Both the position numbers and the translations under genes were made by a program. DNA of 29,363 bases from the IMG/VR virus record IMGVR_UViG_2713896897_000016, positions 1 through 29,363 of that record. One strand, 5' to 3'. Positions 1 through 26,205 of this stretch are shown here, piece after piece; position 1 is the first letter of the stretch; each line of letters opens with the position of its first letter. This DNA comes from a virus (lineage: Duplodnaviria; Heunggongvirae; Uroviricota; Caudoviricetes). The notes beneath the pieces were generated by a model. It did no database searches. It saw only the letters and a list, made by a program, of their open reading frames with translations, and had not been told where the DNA came from.

Positions 1-231
1 CGAACCCGACGCGCCCGACTGTTGAGCACTGAGCGTTAACAGGTGCGCTGCCAGCAGATTGATAGCGAGCGCACGGCTGTTTCCGTTCAGCCAGCCGTAA
101 TCCTCCGTGCTGATATAGCACGAGGCCTGAATCCACCAGGAATCGATGAGCGCGTCGGAGTACTTGGTTACGTCAGAGAAAGCAGGGAGTTGTTGGCGAA
201 ACAGGTCGGCGTCAAAGATGATCGCCGCCAT
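1..231 (-). CDS. DUF4054-like head-tail adaptor protein, partial (runs off the left edge)
   Basis: Not in the ORF track because it has no stop in the window. An ATG at 231-229 (minus) lies 3 nt after the stop of the upstream gene. My translation is MAAIIFDADLFRQQLPAFSDVTKYSDALIDSWW...LLAAHLLTLSAQQ. It shows the F..(F/L)PxF ... AH.L pattern typical of DUF4054 proteins that follow capsid genes. Confidence 0.55.
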   Translation of the reverse strand, partial: MAAIIFDADLFRQQLPAFSDVTKYSDALIDSWWIQASCYISTEDYGWLNGNSRALAINLLAAHLLTLSAQQSGASGS

Positions 232-233
232 GA

Positions 234-620
234 TTATCTTTCCTTTTTGTTGTCGATGACTTTCGGAGGCTCCTGACCTTTAGAGATAAAATCATTTTCA
301 GTCAGCGGCGCCGATTCGTCGCGCGCTTCCATGTCACTGGCGACTTTTTCAACCGGGGCGGGTTTCGCTTCCACAACAATAAAACCGTTGGATTTGTGCA
401 ACTGAAAAACCGGGTTTTGCTCCAGCAGGACCAGATCTTCATCAGATACAGTGGTCACAACGCCTTTTGGCGTGATGAAATTTTTATCAGCCAGGTTTGC
501 GCCGCCCGCTACCAGAATTGCGCGTTCAGCAATCGGCAGATCGCCCCCGCCTTTGTGATATACCTGATATACCTGATATGCCTGTGAGCCTGTCAGCGTC
601 GAATAAATATAATGCTCCAT
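234..620 (-). CDS. Hypothetical head-module protein (128 aa)
   Basis: The ORF is packed between the major capsid gene and the DUF4054-like gene on the same strand. No family recognised. Confidence 0.6.
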   Translation of the reverse strand: MEHYIYSTLTGSQAYQVYQVYHKGGGDLPIAERAILVAGGANLADKNFITPKGVVTTVSDEDLVLLEQNPVFQLHKSNGFIVVEAKPAPVEKVASDMEARDESAPLTENDFISKGQEPPKVIDNKKER

Positions 621-631
621 GAATTCCTCTC

Positions 632-1744
632 TTAGTTGCCAGTTGCACGAACGCAGGCATACGGACGTTTCAGCATCACACCAGCAGTGGCGTTACTGAA
701 ATCCTCGGTGTAAAACTTCGCGCGCTGTTCAGCACCGATAGTGACGAACTTGGCAGGCACGAGCTGCGACCAGACGCCTTTGTCATCGGTCGAAACTTCA
801 TCAGCAAGGATGTTTTCGGCGTGAAGCTGCATGATGTTCGCGCCGCCGTTGGCACCGTCGAACTCCGGCGCGGTCTTGATGCGCCACTTCGGATAGGTTT
901 TGGAAATCCAGTCCTGTACGCTCATCCCCGTCTCAGTAGATACGCTGAGGTACGTGATTGAGCCGTTAGCGAGTGTTAACGTGCATTCGTTTTCAGTCGG
1001 ATCAACAACAGATTTCGAGTCAACCAGCAATGCGTTAGCGATCAGGCGGATATCTGCGGTGATTTCCTGGAATGTTTTACCGGACCATTTTGTCTGTCCT
1101 GATGCGCCAGCCGGGAGCGTTTTGTACGCCGGAGCCGCCGGGTCGTTCAACATACCGTAGGTGCGGTTAGTGCCGTTGTTGTAGCCGTAGAAACCAACGT
1201 CATTACGGTTGATTTCCAGAGCAATCGCCGCGCCGTTACGTTTGGTTGCCGCGCTATCAACTTTGATTTTGGCTGCGCGCGCTGATTCCAGATAACCAAC
1301 CTGCAACCCTTCTTCAAAGCGAATGACGCTGCGGCGCTCATAGCCGACGTTCCAGGACGACAGCGGGATATTGGTGTAGTCGCCGTACACCGCCGCTTTA
1401 CCCGTCAGTTCCATGACGGACTGGATGATCTCTTCGTCTTCCCAGCTACCGACAGTGGTAATGCCAATCAGGTCGTCGATTTTGCGCGGCTGCGTAACCG
1501 TGGCAACAAAGCCCGGTAGCCAGGTTTGCAACGCCTGGACTGGTACACCGTTGCTCGCCGCAGTGGTGAGGCCCGGCAAAGTGGTTGAGTCCATCGCCGC
1601 GCCCATTGTGCGCAGCGTGCGGGAATCCATGCAGATCCCCAGCTTAGACAGCCCTTTCGGATAGCCATCGCATTTCGTCAGATTGAGCGGGCGAACGTTG
1701 CGCGGCCCAATGTACGAATGAATTTGTGAAACGGTTTTACTCAT
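632..1744 (-). CDS. Major capsid protein (DUF2184-type)
   Basis: 370 aa ORF in the capsid position, downstream of a DUF2213-like gene and a small cement-like gene. The sequence style (..GITTVGSWEDEEI..GYERRSVIRFEEGL..) matches DUF2184 capsid proteins as I recall them. Confidence 0.8.
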   Translation of the reverse strand: MSKTVSQIHSYIGPRNVRPLNLTKCDGYPKGLSKLGICMDSRTLRTMGAAMDSTTLPGLTTAASNGVPVQALQTWLPGFVATVTQPRKIDDLIGITTVGSWEDEEIIQSVMELTGKAAVYGDYTNIPLSSWNVGYERRSVIRFEEGLQVGYLESARAAKIKVDSAATKRNGAAIALEINRNDVGFYGYNNGTNRTYGMLNDPAAPAYKTLPAGASGQTKWSGKTFQEITADIRLIANALLVDSKSVVDPTENECTLTLANGSITYLSVSTETGMSVQDWISKTYPKWRIKTAPEFDGANGGANIMQLHAENILADEVSTDDKGVWSQLVPAKFVTIGAEQRAKFYTEDFSNATAGVMLKRPYACVRATGN

Positions 1745-1754
1745 GATTTTTCCG

Positions 1755-2249
1755 TTAGTTAGTGAGCGTGATAACAGCAGGGCCAGCGCCAGCGGTAGAG
1801 AAATGCGTCACACGACAGTTCGGGACAAACGCACAGTTACTACCCGGATCTGTTGCGGATGCCGTGACAGTTGAGAGGATTCCTGTAGTTGTGTTGAACA
1901 CCACTTTTTGTCCAATTAATACGGCAGAGGAAAACGTGACAACGAGTATCCCCATAGAGCAGAACTCAGCGCTCAGGCCGTTGGGCAAAGCCATCGAGGC
2001 GTTCAGGGGGTTGCTCGAATCGCCGTACATAGGTTGGGATTTTGGATTGACCATGATCCCGACAAATGTGTCCGCCCCTCCGCCCGCAGTAACATGATCT
2101 CCGGCAGCGCTGAACGCGCGCCCGAAAACGTTGTTTTTGGCGTCAGAAGACTGGAGCACCGCAGAGCGCACACGGCTCGGACCCTCAGCGTAAAACTCAC
2201 CCGGCACGCCAAACGCCAGGGATTTATTGATAGCAGTTGGAAACGACAT
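1755..2249 (-). CDS. Small head protein, possibly Gp24-like structural cement/decoration protein
   Basis: 164 aa Gly/Ala/Ser-rich ORF between the scaffold-like and capsid genes. Its start overlaps the upstream stop (TAATG). The family call is tentative. Confidence 0.45.
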   Translation of the reverse strand: MSFPTAINKSLAFGVPGEFYAEGPSRVRSAVLQSSDAKNNVFGRAFSAAGDHVTAGGGADTFVGIMVNPKSQPMYGDSSNPLNASMALPNGLSAEFCSMGILVVTFSSAVLIGQKVVFNTTTGILSTVTASATDPGSNCAFVPNCRVTHFSTAGAGPAVITLTN

Positions 2250-3424
2250 TATTTGCCCCCCAGATATTTGGTAATTTCGTCACTATCAGCCGCGTCAGCC
2301 GCTGAATATGTGGTGTCGTCGCTGCCGCCGTAGTTAACAGGGCGTGCGTGGAGATAGCCCAGCAGCACGGCTTCTTCCATGCCGTCAGCACAGTTGATGC
2401 CGAGTTTTTTCACGCCGTATTTAGCGACTTCATCCAGCGTTTTTTCGCGATGGTCAAACGCGCCGATGTGGTGGGATAGTTGCTCTGCCAGCGTATCGCG
2501 GCGGGCGATCTGCCCCATGAGCATTTTCATTCCGTCTTTTTTAAAACCGTCCAGCGCGCTGCGCGTGTCCCGGATTTCTGCACGAAGTTTTTTAATTGCT
2601 GCGTCCTGCGCTGCTTTTTCTTCCGGTGGCACGTCCTCATCTCCGGTTTTTTCTTCAGGCGGTGTTGCCGTTTTTTCTTCCTCTGGTGGTGCCTCCTCAT
2701 CCGGTGTTGTCGCTGCCTGATTTGCGCCCTGTGCGGACTGGAATTGCTGGATAATCGGCATGATTTGTTTGATTGCTGCTGCGCACTGAGCCAGCGTCAT
2801 ATCTCCCTCGCCAGCGCCGTCGCCGTCCTGACCTTCTTTGTTTTCGCCTGGTTCTGCCATGTGTTTTAACTCCGATGAATCTATTGTGAATTTAAAGTGG
2901 TCGAGCACCGCGACCGTTGGCCCCATGCGCCCCTCATCAACCAGGGCAATGTGATTGCCGCGAATTTTGAGTTGCACATAGTCGTAGGGTTGACCGTTCC
3001 ACGTTCCCGGTCTGAATACGTATACGCAGCGATAGCCGCAGGAGAGTTCCTTTTTTCCGTCGGCGATTAGCTCTGCCAGACGCTGAGAAAAAACTTTGAG
3101 GTTTGCGTAGAGCGTTCCCTGATTTTCGTCGCCCTCAAAAACGACGTTTTCCCCGATAACGCCTTCAACGCCGTACTGCTCCGCTGGAGTCTCTCCCTCG
3201 CCGAGCATTTCGTGGTCGTTGATAAATGGCAGCAGCCTGAATGATTGCAGGCACTCAGGATCTGCCAGCGCCTCTGCGGGGCGGTAAACCATGTAGATTT
3301 TGTCTGCATCAGGCGCGCCGATGGTTGCCCCCATATACGGAAAAACCCCAACTTTTGAGATGGGGTTTTTGGGGATTTCGAACCAGTTGTTGAGGTCGTA
3401 TATTCGTTGAGATTGGCCCGTCAT
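2249..3424 (-). CDS. DUF2213-like prohead scaffold/protease-like protein
   Basis: The N-terminus ..IYDLNNWFEIPKNPISKVGVFPY..YRPAEAL..LPFINDHE resembles DUF2213 proteins. The C-terminus has a charged PPEE(K) repeat, which is scaffold-like. I chose the ATG at 3424 because it forms an ATGA overlap with the upstream stop. The longest ORF extends to 3475. Confidence 0.7.
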   Translation of the reverse strand: MTGQSQRIYDLNNWFEIPKNPISKVGVFPYMGATIGAPDADKIYMVYRPAEALADPECLQSFRLLPFINDHEMLGEGETPAEQYGVEGVIGENVVFEGDENQGTLYANLKVFSQRLAELIADGKKELSCGYRCVYVFRPGTWNGQPYDYVQLKIRGNHIALVDEGRMGPTVAVLDHFKFTIDSSELKHMAEPGENKEGQDGDGAGEGDMTLAQCAAAIKQIMPIIQQFQSAQGANQAATTPDEEAPPEEEKTATPPEEKTGDEDVPPEEKAAQDAAIKKLRAEIRDTRSALDGFKKDGMKMLMGQIARRDTLAEQLSHHIGAFDHREKTLDEVAKYGVKKLGINCADGMEEAVLLGYLHARPVNYGGSDDTTYSAADAADSDEITKYLGGK

Positions 3425-4294
3425 GTTGTTGTTCCATCGTCGAGTTCGATAACCGGGCGCATCCGACATTTGCAATTCGGCAGTTGTCCGGGTAATCCGC
3501 GCTCACCAGTTTTTGGGTCGATAACCGGGGGATCATTGATGTCGTATATCCCGCCGTTCAGTGTGTGCAGGTGATACGGTCGCGGCCTTTGTCCGCCCGC
3601 AGAATGTAGCCACTCGAATTTGCTGATACCCACCGACTTCATGCGTTCGGCGTTTATCGTGTTGTAAACCTTGCGGGTCTGGTCCAACGCCATGTTTTTG
3701 GCGTGGCGCTCTGTGATTCCGTTTTGCCGCTCGAAAAATGGCGTGAGATCAGCCAGGCCGTTCCCGCTACTGATTGACGACGTAACCGCGTTTTTTACAG
3801 TAGCCAGATATTGCTGAGGAATTGAGACAATCAGATTGGTGCTCTGTGTTGCCGCCGCGTTCAGCTTTTCTTTCAGAGTTCCAGAAAAAATATCCGTTGA
3901 AAGTGTCACGCCCCCCGGTTAACTGCTCGATACTCTGCCGCAGGCTGGTTGTGCTTGAGTTCGCCGCACCTTTGAGCATTTTTTCAGTGATACCCTTTGC
4001 CCGACTTTTAAAAACTTTCATGAACTTACTAGCTAATGAGTTCAACAAAATTCGTGACTGACTCGATACACTGGCGTCCGTAGCGAAATAATGTTTGCCA
4101 GTACCCGACTGAAACAGCGCGGTGATTTCCTGCTGTGTTTCCCGCGTCATCCGCCTGACCAGTTTCAGCAACTCAGCCTCAATCCTCCCCGCCTGCGCCG
4201 CGTTATAGTTGAGCGGTGCGCCCCGGATTATCTGGGGCTTGAACTGGCGCGCCCATTGTGCCTTCCTCTTCGCCAGATTGATTTTCTTCGCCAT
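3421..4294 (-). pseudogene. Minor head / head-morphogenesis protein (SPP1 gp7 / Mu F-like), split by a frameshift in a G6 run
   Basis: The N-terminal fragment (ATG 4294, [11 protein letters not shown]...SIEQLTGG) and the C-terminal fragment (3421-3909, ..FEWLHSAGGQRPRPYHL..LPNCKCRMRPV) are in different frames. They join cleanly if one G is removed from the run at 3911-3916, giving ..LTGGVTLSTDIF... The start is uncertain because ATG 4294 overlaps the portal gene by 92 nt. Confidence 0.7.
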
Positions 4295-5735
4295 TGTCGT
4301 CCTCATACGGTTCGATTCCGCTGTACCCGCTGTCCGGGTCTTTGATAATCCGGTTGCGAACGTCCACACCGTCGATAGCGCCGACCTGTGCCAGCGCGGT
4401 ATCTGTCTGCGCTTTTTTGACGTTGATATCTGCCTGCTCAGTAGCCGTGAGTGATGCCACTGGTAACCAGGTGATTTCTGTTTCGACGGGTGAGATACCG
4501 AACCGTGGCGCAATAACGGACCGCATGAGCATTTGGTGATGACGCTCTGCCAGCGGCGTGAGGTCGTTTTCCTGGATTGCCTCCAGCTCCTCGTGATAGC
4601 TCGATTCCTTGTAGCTGCCGCTGGACTGAAAACCTTTCGGCGACGTACCCATCAGTTTTGTGACCGGAACACCCGACGCGCCAGCAACTAACTGGTATTG
4701 CGTCATCGTCACCGTGTCGACGTCAGCCAGCGCGGTATCTGTCTGCTGATACGTGTCGTTACGGTCGATAATTTTCACGCCGTAGTTGTTGAGGTAATAC
4801 ATCCACAACGCCATGCGTTCCTCAAACGCCACCTGGTCAGTGAGTGCCGCTGCTGTGTTAACCGACAAAACCGTGCTGCGCTTTGTCATCGCAAGCTGCG
4901 GCCCCTCGTTTGCCGTGCGTTCTGCTGCGTAGACGCGCTCAAATATTTTCTGCGGAATCGACACACCGCCGTAGTTGTACGTCGGCTTGAGGACGTCCGG
5001 CACTTCGTTAGCGCGGAAAATACAGAAATGTGAACGATGAACACGGCCCAGCCCGTTAACACGCCACCACGTTGGCTCGTAGAAATGCAGATTTGCCGGG
5101 TTAGCAGTTGCGTTGCGGTCCAGTTCTGGAGTGAGCCAGTACGGGTCTATCTGCGATATCCCGCGATAGCTGCCCGGTTTCACGCTGTCGATATTGAACG
5201 GTTTGGCGTAGTAGTTCGGGTCGTCAGAATCCACCATGAATAACGCGTGTCTGATGCCGAAAATGCGCCCCATACGCACAAACTCGCGCATGGATTTATT
5301 CAGGCCAAAACGTTTATCCAGCCTTTGCATTGCCGCGATAATTTCCGGCGTAGCCTCGCTGCCGTCGTTTACCGTGATTTCGTAACCGTTGCGCACCGCG
5401 TCACGCGCGGGCATTGTGCAGACTTTATCCACCAGCCAGTGCTGAGCGATAACAGCACAGAGTTGATAGCCAATAAATCCCTGGCTGGCGTACCAGCCCA
5501 ACTGAGCATCGGGAACGCTGGCATCAGTGCCGCCCCATTTGCCAATTGCGGCATCCATGCCGACACCTTTACGTGTGCGGGGCATTGGTTTCTGGAGACT
5601 ACGCGCCATCAGTGCGGTCCGGTCAATTTCCGGCATGAACAACGGCACATCAGTCGAAAAAAAACCCGCTCCAGATTTGGGCGGGTCATCATTTTTTGGC
5701 AGCGGTTCGGGCTGCTGTTTTTTGAAGGGCCACAT
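4203..5735 (-). CDS. Portal protein (DUF1073-type)
   Basis: 510 aa ORF immediately downstream of the terminase large subunit, with an acidic C-terminal tail. Size and position are typical of a portal. Confidence 0.8.
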
Positions 5736-7225
5736 CAGTCAAAGAATCCTCGCTGCGGGTTAATCAACATGTCGTCTACCGCGTCCATCGCAGTGTCCAG
5801 CATATCGTCGTTGTCGTGTGTATCGTCAGCAGTAAACGCAACGGCCTCGGCAATAAATCCAACTACCCACTGTGTTGTGCCAGCTATCGTTACGCCGTCA
5901 CTGTAATACGTGTGGAATATCGGGTTCCGGTCCGCGTCGTGAGTGTCGGGGATATAAACTTTTCCGGTTTTCAGTTGCGGGATACAGTTCAGGCATCTGA
6001 CCAGTTTATTTTCGCCGTCGCCACGCTGAACCGCGTTAACTGGAATAGCGCGCCGTTTTGTGAGCGTGGTTATCAGCCCCTGCCCCGCCTGTTTATCCTC
6101 GATAGCCATATAACGCAGCGCCGCACGCTGGAGAGTATCCGACGGTTGCCAGCGCTCCCACAGCTCCTCCGCTTTTCGTAGCAGCTCCTCCGGGTCCCAT
6201 TTCCCGCGCTCCATATCGATGATATACATGTTCCCGTCCACCCCCATACCCGCCAGGGTAAAAACGGTGTAGTCGTTAAAATCTTTAACTTTGCCGGAGT
6301 TGGTATCAACGTACACAGCGCGCCAGAGCAGGCGCGGTAATTTCCTGTACGTGCGAAACCATTCGCCGTTAATCAGCCCACCGGATAATGCTGCTGGATT
6401 TTGCTGGTACTGACTCAAAAACGTGTACGCGTCACGCTCCCACAGTGCCAGCAGATCTCCCACGTACTCCATCTCGGGCCAATACGACCAGTACCGGACG
6501 CCCGCGACGGTTACGCTGTCAGTGTTTTTTACGACGCTCCAGCACTGTGTTCGCCACGGTTCCGGCAGCGCGTCGATATATTCCTCGCCAATCAGCGCGG
6601 GAATAACGGTGTGATCAAAACTCAGGCCCATTCCACCAGTGAGCATAAACCCGGTCGCGTCATCAACGTGGAGCCGCTGCTGTATAGAAATAATCGGAGT
6701 GGGATTGTCTTTAGAGCGATCCCCACGACGGGAGCGAATTGTGTTTACCAGTAACTGGTTGGCAGAGGCGCGCTTCGTCTCCGAGAACATATCGAGCGGT
6801 TTATTAAAATCGTCGAGCAGCACATAACCCGAAAATTCGGGACCGGAATAACCACCACGACCGCCAGTAATCTGACCGCCACCAGCTCGCGACACGGTTT
6901 GCCCAACTGAACGCCCCAGCGCGTTGATTATCTCCCACTCGTCAGCCTGTTTGACGCCGAACTGACAGGGCCACAACTCCTGATACTCCGGGCTGGCAAT
7001 AATATCTCTCGTTCTGCGGCTGGTACGTTTAACGAGTGAATCAGAGAACGAAATATTCAGATTACGAAAACGTTGTAACTTTTTTTCCTGCACCAGTGCG
7101 TTGATATACGCTGGCAGATGAATAGAAAAAAATTCTGTTTTTGTTGAGCCAGGCGGGGTGTTGATAATCAGATTTCGTTTCGCTGCTGTGCCGTTAATAA
7201 TGCCGTCGATTTTCGCCGCCATCAT
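5735..7225 (-). CDS. Terminase large subunit (ORF as it stands; the true N-terminus is upstream of an in-frame TAG)
   Basis: Walker A-like [11 protein letters not shown] and Walker B-like [10 protein letters not shown] motifs, plus a C-terminal nuclease-type region. The same frame continues upstream to an ATG at 7363, interrupted only by a TAG at 7237-7235. Confidence 0.9.
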
Positions 7226-14958: not shown

Positions 14959-15159
14959 TCAGATCCACATCCAGTTTTGCCAGCAACGTCGGACGCGCGG
15001 AGGTTTTTCACTCTCCGGCAACCGGGCGCTGATAGTCCACGTGACGTGATCTGGATTCAGTTCTCGCACTATCTGAACGCCACGCGCGCGATAACGCTGC
15101 TGGAGTTCGTCGGCCTCAGCAGTTGTACAATTGTCGTGGTTAAACCAGGAGTATTTCAT
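14959..15159 (-). CDS. Hypothetical nin-region protein (66 aa)
   Basis: The ORF is coupled to the HNH gene (TAATG) and to ninG. No family recognised. Confidence 0.5.
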   Translation of the reverse strand: MKYSWFNHDNCTTAEADELQQRYRARGVQIVRELNPDHVTWTISARLPESEKPPRVRRCWQNWMWI

Positions 15160-15743
15160 TACGCCTCCTGCCGTTCGCGCAGGCGCATAAATTCAGAATC
15201 GTGGGAGAGCGTTTCGCAATAACTCCACCGCATACCTCGATGCAAGCCTTGACGCCCTTGAATTGATGCGTGAACCAAAGAGGGGTTGCAACCATACCCT
15301 CTGGTTGATTGCATTGATGGATACCAATACCCAAAGCCGTTCATTTCGGCGATAACCGGGGTTTTAATTTTATTGGATAGACCGGTTTCATTAGCGTGCC
15401 TCATATTCATTTTATGAGTACACCACTCTAAGTTTTCCGGTCGATTGTTGCGCTTATTCCCGTCTATATGATTTACATGGGGATAGTTGTTGGGATTGGG
15501 AACGAAGGCCATCGCAACAAATCTATGCAGCAATTTATGCCCTCCACCAACAGACACCCGAATGTAATGAGAAGTTATACAGCCCTTCAAAATACGACTT
15601 TTGATCGTTCTGGTAGTCCAGGTTTTTTTATCTTTTCCGCACGTAACTACCTCGCGTGACAGACTACGAACACGTGCAAAAGAGCTTACTTCAAAGCTGT
15701 TTTCGTAGCCCGGCACAGGCTTCCAGATTTCCCCCTCAAACAT
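15159..15743 (-). CDS. HNH homing endonuclease with an N-terminal NUMOD4 motif
   Basis: [24 protein letters not shown] (NUMOD4) and [19 protein letters not shown] (HNH). Confidence 0.85.
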
Positions 15744-20333: not shown

Positions 20334-21142
20334 ATAAAATCACTCCAGGCCTCAGGGCTGTTCCAGTGCTCTGAATCATCGCCGTGGTTTAAATCTTCGT
20401 GCCGCTGCTTGCGTCCTCTGGCTTCACGCTGTATCGCGAGCGTGTCCCACTTCTCACGCAGTTTTGCAGGAGATAAAATATTCGAGCACCAGAAGGAATC
20501 ACTGGCTGCCCATTTGAATAACTCACAGATTTCACGGTGTGAGCGATTATCCAGCGAACGCATCATGCGGACATCATTTGCCCACGAGGTCATATTTCGG
20601 TTTGTTGCAGACGGCCTGATTGTTTCAATCATGGCGGAAAGCCACTCAGCACAACGCAAATCATCAGCGCTTCCCCACTTTGCCATGGACGGGGTATAAA
20701 TCACCGCGTCAGGATGGGCTGATAAAAATTTCTGTAATTGCTCGTCAGGGGATTCGCCAGAATTCTCTGACGAAGATCTTTTAGTATTTACTTTCTTTTG
20801 TCTTTTGTGTGTCCCTGTTTTGGTGACATTATTAATGCTGTGATGTGAGCCGTTAATATCCCAATCGGCAATATTTTTATTTATACCAATTAACCCACAT
20901 TCACGATCTATAACCTTCATGGATATAAGCTCGTTTTTCGCAGCATTAACTTTTTGCCGCGGCAATCTGGTTATTTCAGCTAACTGCCCATCCGATATTC
21001 GGTCCATTTTTTTATTAAACCCGTATGTTTTGCGGCATACTGCGTGCGCAACTTTGCTTTGAACTTTTGTCAAATCTGCGCCTATCAGTGCCTCATAAAG
21101 ATCATTAGCAATGCGCGTATAACCGTCTTCAATTTCTGCCAC
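20330..21142 (-). CDS. Replication initiator protein O
   Basis: The N-terminal GYTRIANDLYEAL...KTYGFNKKMDRISDGQLAEITRLPRQKVNAAKNELI matches the phage O N-terminal winged-helix domain. ATGA overlap with P. Confidence 0.85.
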   Translation of the reverse strand: MAEIEDGYTRIANDLYEALIGADLTKVQSKVAHAVCRKTYGFNKKMDRISDGQLAEITRLPRQKVNAAKNELISMKVIDRECGLIGINKNIADWDINGSHHSINNVTKTGTHKRQKKVNTKRSSSENSGESPDEQLQKFLSAHPDAVIYTPSMAKWGSADDLRCAEWLSAMIETIRPSATNRNMTSWANDVRMMRSLDNRSHREICELFKWAASDSFWCSNILSPAKLREKWDTLAIQREARGRKQRHEDLNHGDDSEHWNSPEAWSDFI

Positions 21143-21161
21143 GCGAACCGCCTGAAACTGT

Positions 21162-21608
21162 TTAGTGCCCTGCCGGGATCACCGTGTTAAATAACCGATT
21201 GAACGCCTCGCGCGCCTCCTTCCCCTCTTTGCACAGCTCGCGATCAGGCGCGCCCAGGTTGACGGCGTTTAAAAACTCCGTGATCTCCTTGAGAGCCAGA
21301 GCAGATAAATACTGCGGCGCATCAGGCATTGACACGGCAGCACTACGCAGAACAGGCATGGCGCGTAATGCCGGGCCTGTCAGTTCTGCCGCCATAGCGC
21401 TATAGCGTGGGCCGTCACAGTTCTGGAAAATACGGCGCACCCCTTGCCTAGCGTTGTCCTGGTCACTGTCTGGGTCGGGTAGTAAACTGCCGCCTCCCTC
21501 GTAGTGATACTGTGCTGCTATATCCAGGCCGACGGTTTGCCAGCCCTCGCTCGCTGCCCACTGATTAATAGCCGTGGCAACGGCATCAATCGACGGAGTG
21601 ATTTGCAT
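21162..21608 (-). CDS. YdaT-like regulator (CII-position protein of Rac-type immunity regions)
   Basis: SEGWQTVGLDIAAQYHYEGGGSLLP resembles Rac YdaT EKGQAWVANAITEEYLRQGGGELPL. It lies directly downstream of the Cro-like gene. Confidence 0.65.
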   Translation of the reverse strand: MQITPSIDAVATAINQWAASEGWQTVGLDIAAQYHYEGGGSLLPDPDSDQDNARQGVRRIFQNCDGPRYSAMAAELTGPALRAMPVLRSAAVSMPDAPQYLSALALKEITEFLNAVNLGAPDRELCKEGKEAREAFNRLFNTVIPAGH

Positions 21609-21816
21609 TTTTCAGCTCCTCGCGACGATTCTGTTTATGCTGGTCATAGATAACGGGGTCGTAAGTTAGAACTCCGCCGGAAGCCTCCTGTAGTCGCATG
21701 GCCCTTGCTTCAGGTACCAACTCTTTCCATTTGTAAAAAGATGGAAGCCTGATGCCCGCAGCCTCCGCTACGCGGGTTTTACTACCAAAAAACTCTAACG
21801 CATCCCTTGTGAACAT
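21586..21816 (-). CDS. Cro/YdaS-like HTH regulator
   Basis: FFGSKTRVAEAAGIRLPSFYKWKE.VPEARAMRLQEASGG is a Cro/YdaS-type HTH. I prefer the ATG at 21816 (AAGGG 7 nt upstream). The alternatives at 21840 and 21876 would overlap an operator-like palindrome. Confidence 0.7.
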   Translation of the reverse strand: MFTRDALEFFGSKTRVAEAAGIRLPSFYKWKELVPEARAMRLQEASGGVLTYDPVIYDQHKQNRREELKNANHSVD

Positions 21817-21832
21817 TATCTTGCCCTTAAAA

Positions 21833-21846
21833 TTAGCCATAACTAA
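21833..21846. promoter_or_regulatory. Operator-like site TTAGCCATAACTAA (12/14 match to the pL palindrome)
   Basis: It lies immediately downstream of a candidate minus-strand -10 in the cI/cro intergenic region. Confidence 0.4.
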
Positions 21847-21847
21847 T

Positions 21848-21876
21848 AAAATACAACCAAATAAAAACTTGATCAA
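21848..21876 (-). promoter_or_regulatory. Candidate pR-like promoter (TTGATC-N17-TATTTT) for the cro-like operon
   Basis: Hexamers and a 17-nt spacer read directly on the minus strand. The -35 lies in the perfect palindrome CTTGATCAAG. Confidence 0.4.
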
Positions 21877-21882
21877 GAGATA

Positions 21883-21896
21883 TTAGTATTAGCTAA
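21883..21896. promoter_or_regulatory. Operator-like site TTAGTATTAGCTAA (11/14 match to the pL palindrome)
   Basis: It ends 2 nt before the repressor ATG at 21899. Confidence 0.35.
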
Positions 21897-21898
21897 CT

Positions 21899-22309
21899 AT
21901 GGATATGAAAAAGTTGACTATCGGCGAACGCATCAGATTCCGCCGCAAAGAGTTGAAATTAACGCAAAAGTCATTAGCTAAGGCCCTTGGGCTGTCTGAT
22001 GTTTCCGTATCGCAGTGGGAAAGAGATGATAGTGAGCCCACGGGGAAGAACCTTTTTGCTTTAGGGAAGGCGCTCCAGTGTTCGGCAACCTGGATTCTCT
22101 ACGGAGATAAAGAACAGACTCCGGGTGTGCCAGTAACTCAGCCGTTAGAGCTTGATGAACAGCAACGAGAGTGGCTTGAATTATTTAATTCATTACCAGA
22201 ATCGGAGCAACTCATACAACTGGAGGCCATGAGAGTAAAAGTCGAAAACTATAATCGACTATTTGATGAACTACTAAAAGCAAGAAAAAGAAACAAAACA
22301 GATAGTTAG
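21899..22309 (+). CDS. CI-like prophage repressor, XRE-family HTH, without a peptidase S24 domain
   Basis: IGERIRFRRKELKLTQKSLAKALGLSDVSVSQWERDDSEP is a classic XRE HTH. The protein is only 136 aa, and its helical C-terminus has no Ala-Gly cleavage site or Ser/Lys dyad region. It is divergent from the cro-like gene. Confidence 0.8.
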   Translation: MDMKKLTIGERIRFRRKELKLTQKSLAKALGLSDVSVSQWERDDSEPTGKNLFALGKALQCSATWILYGDKEQTPGVPVTQPLELDEQQREWLELFNSLPESEQLIQLEAMRVKVENYNRLFDELLKARKRNKTDS

Positions 22310-22352
22310 TGGAAATGGAGTAGTTGGATTTCAAGTAAGAGGGAATAGTATT

Positions 22353-22682
22353 TTGATTATTACGCATGAGAAATTTATCAATTTTTTAACTTCTGTTGGC
22401 GCGGGCGTCCAGTGTCCTGTTTGTAAGTTTGTCGGTTGGGATATAAGCGCCACTTGGGAAATCGATACCAGCGAGAAAAAGGACGATCTTATTATTAATC
22501 ATTTGCCTTACGCGAGACTTCATCGGGATGAAACCACGACAGGGTTCTCAGGCGGCCTCCCCCTTCTAATGACTAGTTGTAACAAATGTGGATACACACG
22601 GCTTCATCATTACAAAATCGTCAGTGCTACCATACAGGAAATGGATGATTTAGGGGCTGATGGGGACACTACCAATGAATAA
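22353..22682 (+). CDS. Zn-ribbon protein (109 aa), unknown function, rexA-position
   Basis: TTG start preceded by AAGAGGGAA. CPVC (res 21-24) and CNKC (res 76-79) form a putative four-Cys zinc ribbon. AT-rich codon usage. Confidence 0.6.
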   Translation: MIITHEKFINFLTSVGAGVQCPVCKFVGWDISATWEIDTSEKKDDLIINHLPYARLHRDETTTGFSGGLPLLMTSCNKCGYTRLHHYKIVSATIQEMDDLGADGDTTNE

Positions 22683-23049
22683 TGTTATATATACTAATAA
22701 CTGGGGGCCATGTTCAGGTCCTAAAAATGGCGGTGACGGAGGTGGCGGTATGTATGAGGTACGCATCGCAAAACTTGAATCAGACGTTGAAAGCATTAAG
22801 AATGATATTTCTGATCTAAAGGCCAATCTACGAACCGCGAGCACCGACCTTTCAGCAATCAGGCGTGATACGGCGGTTATGCTTCAGAAATTCGTTGATA
22901 TAGATGCTCAACTTTCAACAAAGCCAAGCAAGGATAGCCTCGAGGCCAAGGTGACCAGTTCAGCCAACAAACAAATTATCTGGACTATAGGTTCGATTAT
23001 TGCCACGGTCGGTATGGCTACTGGTCTTATTATAAAAATGATGCACTAA
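22675..23049 (+). CDS. Coiled-coil protein with a C-terminal transmembrane anchor (XhlA-like architecture), rexB-position
   Basis: Heptad-like EVRIAKLESDVESIKNDISDLKANL, then the TM segment IIWTIGSIIATVGMATGLII at the C-terminus. The start is ambiguous. ATG 22675 gives an ATGAATAA overlap, ATG 22750 has a strong GGAGG, and ATG 22660 is also possible. Confidence 0.6.
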   Translation: MNNVIYTNNWGPCSGPKNGGDGGGGMYEVRIAKLESDVESIKNDISDLKANLRTASTDLSAIRRDTAVMLQKFVDIDAQLSTKPSKDSLEAKVTSSANKQIIWTIGSIIATVGMATGLIIKMMH

Positions 23050-23066
23050 TCCCTTCATACAATAGC

Positions 23067-23089
23067 ACCGGCGAAAGCCGGTTTTTTTT
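23067..23089 (+). terminator. Rho-independent terminator ending the repressor operon
   Basis: ACCGGC-GAAA-GCCGGT followed by T8, 18 nt after the stop at 23049. Confidence 0.8.
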
Positions 23090-23150
23090 CGCTATAAAAC
23101 AGATACTTGAAAAAAATCGGCAATAAATCACGCCAAAATTAAGTTTTAAC

Positions 23151-23179
23151 TTGATTTTAATTTTAGCTATAGCTAACAT
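23151..23179 (+). promoter_or_regulatory. Candidate pL-like promoter (TTGATT-N17-TAACAT) with an embedded perfect 14-bp palindromic operator TTAGCTATAGCTAA (23163-23176)
   Basis: Hexamers, spacer and palindrome were read directly. It is oriented toward the early-left operon that begins at 23335. Confidence 0.5.
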
Positions 23180-23334
23180 CACATCGTCGAAAGCAGTCAC
23201 CCAGGCAGGATGCCCACGAAGTAGCCGCCAGCGGCATATGAAGAGCTGGATGATGTGACTATCAACAATCACTGCACAGTGATTACTCAGTAAACGTTCC
23301 GTTAGCCGCGACAAGGCCAGATGAGGGATTCGCA

Positions 23335-23736
23335 ATGAGCAACATGACAGTAACCAGGGGAACAGGGTACGACGAGGACAATATCCCGCTTTGTGGTAAG
23401 GGCCTGTTTTATTGGGTTGACGTTAATGGCAGTACCGACATGGACGGTCATCATGAGTTTGGGACCGAAAGAGAGGTCATCGAATTAATTGATGAACTCA
23501 TCCCCGCCCCGCTTTACAACGTTTACCAGCGAGCTGACGGAATGCAGATCGCAGTTAATATCAATGGCACTGCATGTTTTATGCGCCCGTTTAAGCAGGC
23601 CGCATGGCTGCGCACCGGATTTGAAGCTAATCTGGAGTACTACTGGCTCGTTGATAAACAAGTTTCAATCAGCGATACCCCGAATTTAATGGCTCATTTT
23701 GATAACGGGCGATTAGAAGTTGTGGAGGTGTTTTGA
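23335..23736 (+). CDS. Hypothetical early-left protein (133 aa)
   Basis: First ORF after the putative pL. Its stop overlaps the next start (ATGA). Confidence 0.6.
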   Translation: MSNMTVTRGTGYDEDNIPLCGKGLFYWVDVNGSTDMDGHHEFGTEREVIELIDELIPAPLYNVYQRADGMQIAVNINGTACFMRPFKQAAWLRTGFEANLEYYWLVDKQVSISDTPNLMAHFDNGRLEVVEVF

Positions 23737-23942
23737 TGAAACACCAACACTACGGCACTAAATTAGTTGAGCGCGGAGAGGTGAAGCCCGGAACATTATT
23801 ATTGTACAACGGGAAAATTTACACCGCGTCCGCAAATGTCAAAGCCGGTTTGCATATTAATACGCTACTAGAAAAAACGATGATTAAAAGCAACTTAATC
23901 ACAGTTTTTTTAGATGGTGCAGGCGAGCATTTAATTAACTAA
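23733..23942 (+). CDS. Hypothetical protein (69 aa)
   Basis: Translationally coupled small ORF. No family recognised. Confidence 0.5.
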   Translation: MMKHQHYGTKLVERGEVKPGTLLLYNGKIYTASANVKAGLHINTLLEKTMIKSNLITVFLDGAGEHLIN

Positions 23943-24006
23943 TCAGAATTAAATTTATTTATGCCCTAACAGGCAGGGATAACCACATTTAATAGCAGGT
24001 CCGATT

Positions 24007-24303
24007 ATGCCAGCTTACGCTATTTATGACGCTATTGAACAGCAACGCAATGACGCTGATGTTATTAATGTCATACGCGAAAAGGAAGAAAAAGAATTAT
24101 CAGAATGGTTTTCAGGGGCAATTAAGCCCCGCTTTATCCAGTCTGCTGTATTGACCGCATTAGGCAGCAGAGCAGATGAAAAAGCAGTAAATAACGCATT
24201 TGATGTTTGCAGTATTGAAGAACTGGTCGCGGAATTTACACAGCAATTGAGTGATGAGATAGCGCGCCAGCAACAGAAAATTAACGACAGTTTCAGAAAT
24301 TAA
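24007..24303 (+). CDS. Hypothetical protein (98 aa)
   Basis: Acidic helical ORF on the operon strand. No family recognised. Confidence 0.55.
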   Translation: MPAYAIYDAIEQQRNDADVINVIREKEEKELSEWFSGAIKPRFIQSAVLTALGSRADEKAVNNAFDVCSIEELVAEFTQQLSDEIARQQQKINDSFRN

Positions 24304-24312
24304 GGACACAAA

Positions 24313-26205
24313 ATGTCAGAATTAAAAGTCTATATCGGTGCATATATCCCCGACGAAAAATCAATTGAAGAAAACGGCGCTCGCAAAGTTGCCTACGCAT
24401 TTGAAGCGCGTGGTGAAAAACACGCGCGAGCAAAACTTTCATTTGCATTCATTGAGGAATATCCGGGAGCGCAGGACGCAGCATTTAAAAGTTTTCTTTG
24501 CGAGGACGCACCAGGAATGCCCCGCCCCGCTCTTAATGTATGGGATGAGGATTTTCTTTATGAAAATGACTGGTCCGAGGAATTAGGACACCCGGTTTCA
24601 CGTATTGAAGAACCGAAGTCAGTGGATTTTAATAAACTCTCCAGCGAGCAAAAAATCGCCGTATTAGTCAAATACTCCACCGCCGATATAACAACCGATA
24701 TGCTGCCGGACGCGCTGGAATTAACACAGGATGAGGCAGGAACATTCCCCGGTCATATTGTCGAGGCAATTAGTAAAACTCCGGCAATTACTGCTATGTA
24801 CCCCGAGCGTATTATTGAGGCCATTCAGTACGTTGTCAAAAAATGCGCAACTACCAGCAAGTGGCCCGACATCAAAGCGCAGCTCGCGAGCTGGCAGAGC
24901 GGTTTAAATCCTGAGCGCACGGAACCGGAATCAACTGAAAAATTACGCACCCCGTCAGGCGCTACCGCTGGCGGTGGTAACGCCACGGATCGCAATCCTG
25001 ATGTTGAGCATGATTTTAACTCTCTCGCGCTCGAAATCGCGCTGGGTATTCATGCACGGGCGATGGATTTTGATATTTACAATCTCCGCTCCGCGCACAT
25101 TAACCGCGCTCGGGAAATTATTAAGTATAAAGAAAAGCCGTTCCCCGCCCTGTTTGACGCGTTCCGTAATACTCCGGGTGTACTCGATTATTCCCGAGCC
25201 ATGATCATCTACGCGGTCAAAACGGCACCGGAAAATATTGAGAGCACGCCGGGTAAATTATCACACTATCTGAACACCACGCTTACGGAGTCAGACCACG
25301 AACACCCGGATCCGCAAATGATCGCTATTGCGTGTGGTACGCACACCGAAGAATCAAGCCAGGGCGAGCCAGCGCCGCAGGAAGACACACCAGAACCAGA
25401 GCGTCAGGGGCCGTTCTACTACCGCACCCCTCAGGGCGAGGTTGGGCGCGCGAATAAGCTGGCAAAACTGACAGCGGTTATTGAGCAGGGTTGCGAGGAG
25501 ATTACACGCGAGCAGTACACGGAACTCAAAAATGCGCCGTCATATGATGACGTTAGTAAACAGCTCGCAGCACAACGCGGTGAATACGTAGAGGGAATCA
25601 GCGACCCGAATGATCCGAAATGGGTTAAGACCGAAGTTCAACCAGAGGTAAAAAACCACGGTAACGGCGTGTTTTCAATTGAGGGGTTAATGGGCGAGCA
25701 GGAAAAACCAGCGGCCCCGGTCGCCTCAGATGAGGGAGTAAAAGCGAAAGAAGCCCATGTTGTAGCCACCCCGGCCCCGGTTGATTTTCAGGGCGTTGCT
25801 GCAAGTCTCGAAAAAGACATGGCAAACAAAAACGACGAGGCCAGGGGCAATCTCGCTATCTGGCGTAGCGTAATGCGGACCGATCCCCGATTCACAAAAC
25901 AGATGGTGGGAATGGGATTTGAGGGAACCAGCATCAACCCCGAATATATGATTATGCGCGCTACGGAGATATTTGGGCCTATCGGTAGTCGTTGGGGTTT
26001 TGAAATATTAGAGGACCGAATGATTCCGGGCGCTCCTTTTTCTGAGGCTGTTTATGAGGATAAAAAATTCATTTGCAACCGCATGTTGCGTGACGGTGAC
26101 GGCACCTTGCTGCATGAACAAAACCACAGCATTAAAATCCGCCTGTGGTATCAGGTCGGTGCTGATGAGGGATCGGTATATGTTCAAAACGAAACACGGA
26201 ATTAA
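24313..26205 (+). CDS. Large early protein: about 500 aa of unknown N-terminal region followed by the first half of a Rad52/Sak-type single-strand annealing core (frame breaks near 26165-26182)
   Basis: The C-terminal part ..SINPEYMIMRATEIFGPIGSRWGFEI...HSIKIRLWYQVGADEGS matches the Rad52-family beta-sheet region. The ORF ends abruptly in ..VYVQNETRN. Confidence 0.65.
   Translation: MSELKVYIGAYIPDEKSIEENGARKVAYAFEARGEKHARAKLSFAFIEEYPGAQDAAFKSFLCEDAPGMPRPALNVWDEDFLYENDWSEELGHPVSRIEEPKSVDFNKLSSEQKIAVLVKYSTADITTDMLPDALELTQDEAGTFPGHIVEAISKTPAITAMYPERIIEAIQYVVKKCATTSKWPDIKAQLASWQSGLNPERTEPESTEKLRTPSGATAGGGNATDRNPDVEHDFNSLALEIALGIHARAMDFDIYNLRSAHINRAREIIKYKEKPFPALFDAFRNTPGVLDYSRAMIIYAVKTAPENIESTPGKLSHYLNTTLTESDHEHPDPQMIAIACGTHTEESSQGEPAPQEDTPEPERQGPFYYRTPQGEVGRANKLAKLTAVIEQGCEEITREQYTELKNAPSYDDVSKQLAAQRGEYVEGISDPNDPKWVKTEVQPEVKNHGNGVFSIEGLMGEQEKPAAPVASDEGVKAKEAHVVATPAPVDFQGVAASLEKDMANKNDEARGNLAIWRSVMRTDPRFTKQMVGMGFEGTSINPEYMIMRATEIFGPIGSRWGFEILEDRMIPGAPFSEAVYEDKKFICNRMLRDGDGTLLHEQNHSIKIRLWYQVGADEGSVYVQNETRN

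Follow-up and report, generated by a model that had tools for sequence, protein, structure and literature searches.

The stretch of DNA analysed here (the window) comprises 29,363 nt, positions 1 to 29,363 of the IMG/VR virus record IMGVR_UViG_2713896897_000016, and represents a lambdoid prophage of Escherichia albertii. Directly downstream of its repressor gene lie two overlapping genes on the same strand, ORF1 and ORF2, which encode a zinc-ribbon protein and a coiled-coil protein with a C-terminal transmembrane (TM) helix. An initial annotation, made from the letters of the window, had read them as a candidate exclusion or abortive-infection pair with a cytoplasmic sensor and a membrane effector. 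Our analysis indicates that the pair forms an accessory cassette (a moron) that is self-contained, spreads horizontally and is presumably transcribed together with the repressor in the lysogen. The locus consists of the following features:

21833..21896: right operator region (OR), which separates the cro-like gene from the repressor gene and contains two TTAG-N6-CTAA sites, at 21833-21846 and at 21883-21896
21899..22309, plus strand: DicA-type repressor, 136 aa (NCBIfam PRK09706 DicA, E = 1.4e-58; HTH_3, E = 2e-15), without an S24 peptidase domain
22353..22682, plus strand: ORF1, 109 aa, TTG start with an AGAGGGA Shine-Dalgarno (SD) sequence; four-cysteine zinc ribbon
22675..23049, plus strand: ORF2, long form of 124 aa; ATG 22675 is the start called by NCBI, the alternative ATG 22660 would give 129 aa
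22738..22752, plus strand: predicted internal ribosome-binding site of ORF2, with GGAGG (22738-22742), a 7-nt spacer and ATG 22750-22752; predicted 99-aa form 22750-23049
22750..22917, plus strand: coiled-coil helix with seven unbroken heptads (residues 26-81 in the numbering of the 124-aa form)
22972..23037, plus strand: C-terminal membrane helix that covers about residues 100-121, is rich in the small residues Gly, Ala, Ser and Thr and has 3-4 residues beyond it
23067..23089, plus strand: intrinsic terminator, ACCGGCGAAAGCCGGT followed by T8, with a 6-bp stem (5 GC) and a GAAA loop
23163..23176: left operator (OL), the perfect palindrome TTAGCTATAGCTAA, 5' of the early-left genes (133-aa ORF, kil and gam)

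Position of the gene pair between the operators

The plus strand carries, in this order, the DicA-type repressor, ORF1, ORF2, the terminator, the 133-aa ORF, kil (phrog_294), gam (phrog_259) and, at the right end, the integrase gene. A P22_Cro-type cro, a cII-like gene and the replication genes O and P are located on the minus strand. The start of ORF2 overlaps the stop of ORF1 by 8 nt (ATGAATAA), as expected from the initial description of two overlapping genes 3' of a repressor, and the strong terminator described at their end was confirmed. Both proteins, including the 109-aa protein with the CPVC and CNKC motifs, are annotated letter for letter in E. albertii as hypothetical proteins, on only 7-8 contigs. 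A megablast search with positions 21800-23400 found nothing in the phage collection and just two 53-nt fragments in E. coli genomes, which indicates that the cassette DNA is specific for E. albertii.

The motif TTAG-N6-CTAA occurs three times in the whole 29 kb, with 0.24 matches expected. Two of these sites lie at OR and one at OL, 74 nt past the terminator, and together they mark the putative operators of a DicA-type immunity system. As the gene pair is situated between OR and OL, it belongs to the immunity region and is co-oriented with the repressor, which is the first gene of the lysogenic transcript. By analogy with lambda tImm, the terminator is expected to close the transcript of repressor, ORF1 and ORF2; a terminator also follows the effector gene in five of the loci gathered for comparison (L004, L014, L147, L148 and L149; L numbers denote such loci). 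Thus, the assignment to the rexAB position holds, the pair being enclosed by the sole three operator sites and having a terminator at its end, as in the lambda arrangement cI-rexA-rexB-tImm. A promoter scan of 21500-23500 detected no consensus promoter and missed PR and PRM as well, hence it was uninformative, and an Rfam scan of 21000-24500 yielded no RNA family.

The pair had also been described as visibly AT-rich. Its codons are indeed richer in AT than those of the structural genes (GC 0.43 and GC3 0.40-0.43 compared to 0.53-0.55 and 0.57-0.65), but this is not particular to the pair, as the repressor, O, kil, gam and int genes are equally AT-rich.

The two proteins and a predicted internal start

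The cysteine pairs of ORF1 are located at residues 21-24 (CPVC) and 76-79 (CNKC). The protein is acidic, with a net charge of -6 and a pI of 5.2, and therefore unlikely to bind nucleic acids. Its structural model (pLDDT 71) shows a helix, a four-strand sheet and a second helix. Nothing significant was obtained for ORF1 in Pfam, NCBIfam or PADLOC, nor among solved structures by sequence profile. A tblastn search against phages gave no match and the family was reached only by profile: ORF1 falls into phrog_4293 (E = 6.7e-12, residues 3-96), a family without functional annotation, and a profile built from four zinc-ribbon proteins of this type recovered 44 proteins, all of them from Enterobacterales and all named 'hypothetical', with only the four cysteines being invariant. 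Weak start codons are frequent at this position. TTG is used in the window (22353) and in the Salmonella L014 type (4688), whereas GTG is found in phage HK544 (L001, 2973) and in the SPN3UB type (L008, 5001), which suggests that synthesis of the upstream protein may be kept deliberately low or coupled relative to that of the downstream protein.

ORF2 had been described as a protein of 99-125 aa with a Gly-rich N-terminus, a heptad coiled coil and a C-terminal TM helix, and this layout was borne out, with 124 aa counted from ATG 22675 and 99 aa from ATG 22750. It consists of an N-terminal peptide, a glycine run, the coiled coil, a KPS hinge and the C-terminal TM helix. In the AlphaFold model, residues 1-25 are disordered and followed by a helix (26-81), a break at KPS and a second helix (96-123). 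The a and d positions of the heptads are occupied 15 times in succession, from I31 to L80. The sole hydrophobic segment comprises residues 100-118 (Kyte-Doolittle mean 1.45). Since there is no signal peptide and the single TM helix is found at the extreme C-terminus, ORF2 is most likely tail-anchored with its bulk in the cytoplasm.

A phmmer search with ORF2 against 1.84 billion representatives returned 199 matches at E <= 1e-3, 39 of them at E <= 1e-10. The protein belongs to phrog_3556 (E = 2.3e-31, residues 7-124) and its relatives to PHROGs 3556, 12602, 6136 and 6324, none of which is functionally annotated. In the family alignment, a hypervariable N-terminus precedes the nearly invariant block G-G-x-x-M-x-E-x-R-[VI]-A-x-L-E-x-x-V-x-x-I, which is followed by RD-x-AV-x-LQK-x-x-D-x-D-x-x-LS-x-KPS and the TM helix. 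The family motifs carried by the coiled-coil helix are M-x-E-x-R-[IV]-A-K-L-E-x-D-V-x-x-I-K and RD-x-AV-x-LQK; an alignment of 40 members provided no conserved stretch suitable for locus scanning. Comparison of the ORF2 profile with solved structures retrieved generic coiled coils only (Lpp, sigma-1 and GCN4), Pfam and NCBIfam gave nothing significant, and PADLOC produced coiled-coil noise only (E >= 0.007). Neither of the two proteins therefore belongs to a Pfam, NCBIfam, PADLOC or solved-structure family, which is in line with the initial impression that they resemble no known system, and no homology search assigned a housekeeping phage function to either of them.

The ambiguity between 99 and 125 aa in the initial annotation likely reflects a conserved internal ribosome-binding site and methionine, from which a second isoform would arise. 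The methionine that opens the coiled coil shows a conservation of more than 90%. Of 19 distinct junctions, 17 have GGAGG 7 nt 5' of this codon, compared to an expected fraction of 0.32, which was derived from synonymous recoding using the codon usage of the loci themselves; the junction sequences are related and do not represent independent samples, so that the statistic is no clean probability. Likewise, Gly-Gly codons partly yield an SD-like sequence automatically, a point against the prediction that was addressed by the recoding control. The glycine codons at -4 and -3 read GGA GGN in 17 of the 19 junctions, and in 18 of the 19 the internal site is the best anti-Shine-Dalgarno match of the whole ORF. 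Of four additional cassettes, whose membrane modules are different, three have the site as well. Furthermore, L065 and several library proteins (93-99 aa) had been called from this internal start.

The possibility that the Gly-rich N-terminus is a mere untranslated leader could be ruled out. The region is open in all pairs, its start overlaps the stop of the upstream gene and it is under purifying selection: the N-terminal 25 codons of the window and of Salmonella L014 differ by 8 synonymous and 4 non-synonymous changes, and in the class represented by HK544 the dN/dS of the N-terminal region is ~0.16. Two products are thus predicted, a long form able to carry the upstream protein and a short form lacking this head.

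Co-conservation, exchange of modules and genomic slots

Loci encoding ORF2-type proteins (effectors) were collected from GenBank phages, GTDB genomes, IMG/VR and public assemblies. A script identified 31 distinct pairs in 62 loci and three further loci were read by hand. Every effector in these about 65 loci is preceded by a partner gene on the same strand with a gap between -29 and +43 nt, most commonly an 8-nt overlap or a distance of 3-6 nt. Starting from the partner side, all four further zinc-ribbon loci that were checked contain an overlapping downstream gene of 94-111 aa. The pair is therefore co-conserved at every related locus examined, as a check proposed together with the initial annotation had asked; the two genes are strictly co-conserved and translationally coupled, and do not represent a chance pair of open reading frames. 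The nearest relatives (74% identity in ORF2) are found in Salmonella prophages with the order DicA-type repressor, zinc ribbon, effector, kilR and gam.

The partner proteins belong to at least four unrelated classes:

Zinc ribbon: window, Salmonella, Pectobacterium, Yersinia, Edwardsiella-like, Serratia and others
93-aa protein (phrog_12039): HK544 gp41, which equals ECs2991
94-105-aa protein (phrog_4231): UPF_BP1
132-150-aa protein (phrog_5893): Pantoea and Entomohabitans

Without exception among the 31 pairs, the class of the effector N-terminus matches the class of the partner. Effectors with zinc-ribbon partners carry the motif [DN]N[VI]..[FY]..[FWIL]P, or FPQH/FPKH, those of the HK544 class a 77-aa 'GKLVIAYSDKNGS' domain, and each of the remaining classes an N-terminus of its own. 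The zinc-ribbon partners and their N-terminal motif, in turn, occur in combination with at least four distinct coiled-coil/TM modules, namely the window type, an XhlA-like type, a short 'SNYATK' type and a 'DFRLLFGAII' type. The XhlA-like module, represented by L008, matches Pfam XhlA (E = 7.7e-6) and the holin family phrog_689 (E = 1.8e-6), and NCBI names some of these effectors 'hemolysin XhlA family'. The simplest reading of this pattern is that the partner would bind the N-terminal peptide or domain of the effector, the membrane module serving as an exchangeable output. Fusions of partner and effector were sought among the longer family members and none was found. In L007, an 85-aa ORF with a coiled coil and a TM segment ('RSDFKLLFGALIAAVLGLAG'; 4632-4889, minus strand) lies convergent with the Entomohabitans cassette. 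It is apparently partnerless and of the same type as the effector that accompanies a zinc-ribbon partner in the P2-like prophage L149.

Relatives of the cassette are present in many enterobacterial prophages, including the Shiga-toxin-1 (Stx1) prophage of E. coli O157:H7. Effectors of the HK544/Stx1-prophage type and of the Salmonella XhlA type were found on at least 1000 contigs each and the Salmonella zinc-ribbon partner on 464 contigs. Within these elements, the cassette is located directly behind five types of repressor:

DicA-type repressor: window and Salmonella
Lambda cI: HK544, with the cassette 5' of the annotated PL
S24-type cI: Pectobacterium, Pantoea and Serratia

In Pectobacterium fontis, the start of the zinc-ribbon gene shares 1 nt with the stop codon of cI (TAATG; L004, 3605-3609), which indicates translational coupling of repressor and cassette. 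In the P22-like phage UPF_BP1, the pair is found behind mnt. This is the place of sieA in P22, where the gene order is sieA-orf59a-mnt (PMC10883804).

Several further slots were observed. In Salmonella, the cassette is part of an arc/ant/KilA-N island that has the major tail gene on one side and the tape-measure gene on the other (476 index blocks), and the slot 5' of the tape-measure gene is presumably that of HK97 gene 15. In L008-L013 (about 1-6200), this immI-like island encodes KilA-N/P63C, Arc, Bro-N antirepressors and ORF6N and sits between the genes for the major tail protein/DUF6246 and the tape-measure gene; its gene content varies between strains, while the cassette is constant. The Yersinia cassette lies between tail J-like and tailspike genes, and that of the P2-like prophage on the strand opposite to the late genes. 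In Pantoea/Mixta (L146, 3501-4158), a zinc-ribbon gene and an effector gene form a lone chromosomal islet, which is flanked by cdaR and DUF3461/dapD/glnD and has no phage genes nearby (within 3.5 kb), and the cassette is therefore able to exist outside prophages.

An alternative assignment of the pair to the conserved backbone of DicA-type prophages could be ruled out. Among 80 related DicA-type repressor loci in IMG/VR, not a single one contains the pair, and 16 different arrangements are found downstream of the repressor. The absence from these 80 loci identifies the pair as an insertion, i.e. a classic moron, and not as backbone.

With respect to the neighbouring genes of the window, the 133-aa ORF (23335-23736, plus strand) is the first gene past OL and has no match in Pfam, PHROG, NCBIfam or PADLOC. 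It occupies the position that N has in lambda; an N-like gene was not recognised. The ORF is missing from the Salmonella relatives that share repressor and cassette: the cassette is followed by kilR as the first called gene in L014-L016, and by two other minus-strand genes in L017. An acidic 630-aa protein without a Pfam family is encoded 3' of gam (24313-26205, plus strand), and the gene at the equivalent place in L065 has YdfE_N and YdfE_C domains. A free-standing NUMOD4 and HNH_3 homing-endonuclease-like gene (15159-15743, minus strand) lies left of the replication genes among the minus-strand genes.

Comparison with known systems and possible functions

The expectation that the pair is expressed in the lysogen is in agreement with published data on the O157:H7 homologue. 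With an mRNA level of log2 11.8-13.0, it ranks among the highly expressed O-island genes (PMC2907692), and the partner protein ECs2991 was detected in a rumen-fluid proteome (PMC3936929). These data support lysogenic expression for the homologue, which resides in an uninduced prophage, rather than for the window genes themselves.

In its organisation, the cassette is similar to lambda RexA/RexB. Both consist of two genes that lie behind the repressor within the immunity region, are part of the repressor transcript and are terminated before OL/PL, and both combine a cytoplasmic with an inner-membrane component. In contrast, there is no similarity in sequence or fold, and a Rex match for ORF1 or ORF2 was found neither in Pfam nor in PHROGs, NCBIfam or PADLOC. 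RexB has four TM helices compared to the single-pass, tail-anchored coiled coil of ORF2, and RexA, with about 280 aa, contrasts with the 109-aa zinc ribbon of ORF1. The exchangeable partner and the predicted internal start are further differences. Taken together, we favour a lysogen-expressed, two-component phage-exclusion or abortive-infection cassette, to which we assign a probability of roughly 0.45. The interpretation as an exclusion or abortive-infection pair put forward in the initial annotation gains from the slot and the co-conservation, with ORF1 and ORF2 as putative sensor and putative effector. The zinc ribbon turned out to be just one of at least four interchangeable partner types. 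A repressor-linked, exclusion-type prophage module without homology to described systems is a plausible description of the cassette.

From these observations we infer binding of ORF1 to the N-terminal peptide, two isoforms, an action at the membrane and an anti-phage function, which can be combined into the following model. ORF2 would form a tail-anchored inner-membrane protein with a parallel cytoplasmic coiled-coil stalk of about 8 nm, tipped by the flexible glycine linker and the short N-terminal peptide. ORF1 would dock on this peptide as an exchangeable 'head' and set the specificity. The internal ribosome-binding site would give rise to the headless short isoform, which could co-assemble via the coiled coil and tune or restrain the activity, modelled on Esc for P22 SieB and S107 for the lambda holin S105. 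In P22, the one gene for the membrane-acting exclusion protein SieB gives rise to two in-frame polypeptides, the shorter of which (Esc) modulates the longer one (PMC12197685), and the conserved GGAGG and methionine of ORF2 predict a design resembling the dual starts of SieB/Esc and of S105/S107. Unlike ORF2, SieB is not tail-anchored, has no partner gene and shows no homology, and the isoforms of ORF2 are predicted from the sequence only; the SieB family was absent from Pfam matches up to E = 1 and PHROG matches up to E = 0.1, and no antisense RNA was detected with Rfam. Upon sensing of a superinfecting phage by the head, the membrane helices, which are rich in small residues and XhlA/holin-like in sister cassettes, could perturb the inner membrane and cause abortive infection. 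Alternatively, they might block a membrane-associated step of infection and thereby lead to exclusion.

Several points weigh against this interpretation. The cassette shows no similarity to known defence proteins (PADLOC-DB v2), RexA/B or SieA/B, and the literature searched yielded no experiment on any family member: neither DefensePredictor, the SieA paper nor keyword searches led to a characterisation of the cassette family, and HK544 appeared merely as a test phage in the Tai paper. The evidence from position is circumstantial, as lysogenic slots hold virulence and fitness genes too. Late expression is possible in the SPN3UB-type prophages of Salmonella and in Yersinia prophages, where late tail genes run in the same direction as the cassette. 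The evidence for an 'adaptor' role of the partner is its co-variation with the effector N-terminus, and the ORF1 model is of moderate quality and has no fold match. Finally, the TM helix of ORF2 is only moderately hydrophobic.

A different function would be that of a toxin-antitoxin-like addiction cassette, with ORF2 as membrane toxin and ORF1 as antitoxin, which stabilises the prophage or islet and has defence at most as a side effect. A small upstream partner that overlaps a small downstream membrane gene is the classic antitoxin-toxin order, and an overlap of this kind (8 nt in the window) is also characteristic of type II systems. The weak TTG/GTG start of the partner is conserved, and the cassette moves as a unit across unrelated elements, up to the lone islet between cdaR and dapD/glnD. 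However, the acidic partner has no DNA-binding domain (no HTH, RHH or AbrB domain in ORF1), unlike type II antitoxins, and neither a toxin family match nor any other similarity to known toxins or antitoxins was found. In addition, four unrelated partner classes with matching N-terminal peptides look more like specificity swapping than neutralisation, and the preferred sie/rex slots favour exclusion. We therefore regard addiction as an unlikely primary role.

About equally improbable is a non-abortive superinfection exclusion, in which the complex blocks DNA entry or an inner-membrane host factor in the manner of SieA, HK97 gp15 or DicB and the cell survives. The SieA and gp15 morons occupy comparable slots, 3' of mnt and 5' of the tape-measure gene, and are likewise prophage-expressed inner-membrane proteins. 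The exact sieA slot of the cassette in the P22-like phage, its location just 5' of the tape-measure gene in Salmonella and the predicted inner-membrane localisation of ORF2 are consistent with such a function, and the exchange of heads could fit the complex to different proteins of the ejection or tape-measure type. On the other hand, SieA and gp15 are single-gene systems with unrelated sequences and topologies, and no similarity to the SieA, gp15, Imm or Sim families was detected. ORF2 is almost wholly cytoplasmic and, with 0-5 residues past the TM helix, cannot meet a phage in the periplasm. Moreover, the XhlA/holin-like sister effectors point to membrane damage.

The resemblance to XhlA noted in the initial annotation applies to the architecture. 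Like this PBSX lysis protein (PF10779), ORF2 is small and combines an N-terminal cytoplasmic coiled coil with a single C-terminal TM helix. At the level of family membership, it did not hold for the window protein, which scores 12.5 bits (E = 0.17) against Pfam XhlA and does not reach the gathering threshold of 34.7 bits; the sister effector of L008 scores 26.4 bits, which is still below this value. Cassettes of the L008 type with the XhlA-like module share the zinc-ribbon partner type and the N-terminal peptide of the window. XhlA, in contrast, has no N-peptide, Gly linker or partner, and ORF2 is not part of a lysis cassette. A role in the lytic cycle of the prophage itself, with ORF2 as a holin accessory or lysis timer regulated by ORF1, or with the pair as a membrane tether controlling the repressor or antirepressor, could account for the XhlA architecture, the XhlA and holin matches of the sister effector, a dual-start design that recalls holin/antiholin pairs and the location among arc, ant, Bro-N and KilA-N genes in Salmonella and Entomohabitans, but is the least likely of the alternatives, since the cassette adjoins holin, endolysin or spanin genes in none of the about 65 loci (the lysis genes of the P2-like prophage lie apart from it, on the opposite strand), lies in the window on the terminator-closed repressor transcript of the immunity region, has a homologue expressed without induction and is missing in most relatives that share the repressor, which excludes a core function.

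Returning to the favoured exclusion or abortive-infection cassette, what is newly recognised here is the modularity of partner and N-terminal peptide, the swappable membrane modules and the predicted conserved internal start, and neither the pairing nor the modularity nor the internal start is recorded in PHROGs. As a more speculative extension, which we consider rather doubtful, the cassette could be the prototype of a modular, 'programmable' device for prophage immunity. In this device, a tail-anchored coiled-coil stalk with a helix that damages or blocks the membrane would be armed by non-covalently docked, interchangeable heads, from at least four unrelated partner folds that each recognise an N-terminal peptide of their own, and a headless isoform from the conserved internal start would throttle it. 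Partner, N-terminal peptide and membrane module may then recombine at fixed junctions, namely gene overlaps of the ATGAATAA type (or an equivalent) and the glycine run with its SD sequence, and new specificities may arise in this way across lambda-like, P22-like and P2-like prophages.

Should the cassette indeed exclude phages, it would constitute an unrecognised and very common defence family that is missed by current defence-finding models, and it could shape which phages, including therapeutic ones, grow on lysogens of Shiga-toxin-producing E. coli and Salmonella. The matching of adaptor and N-terminal peptide together with the predicted isoforms would offer a simple model of the way in which a small membrane effector acquires specificity and remains safe. 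Even if it has no role in defence, the cassette would still be a widespread, lysogen-expressed pair of membrane-associated proteins in major pathogens.

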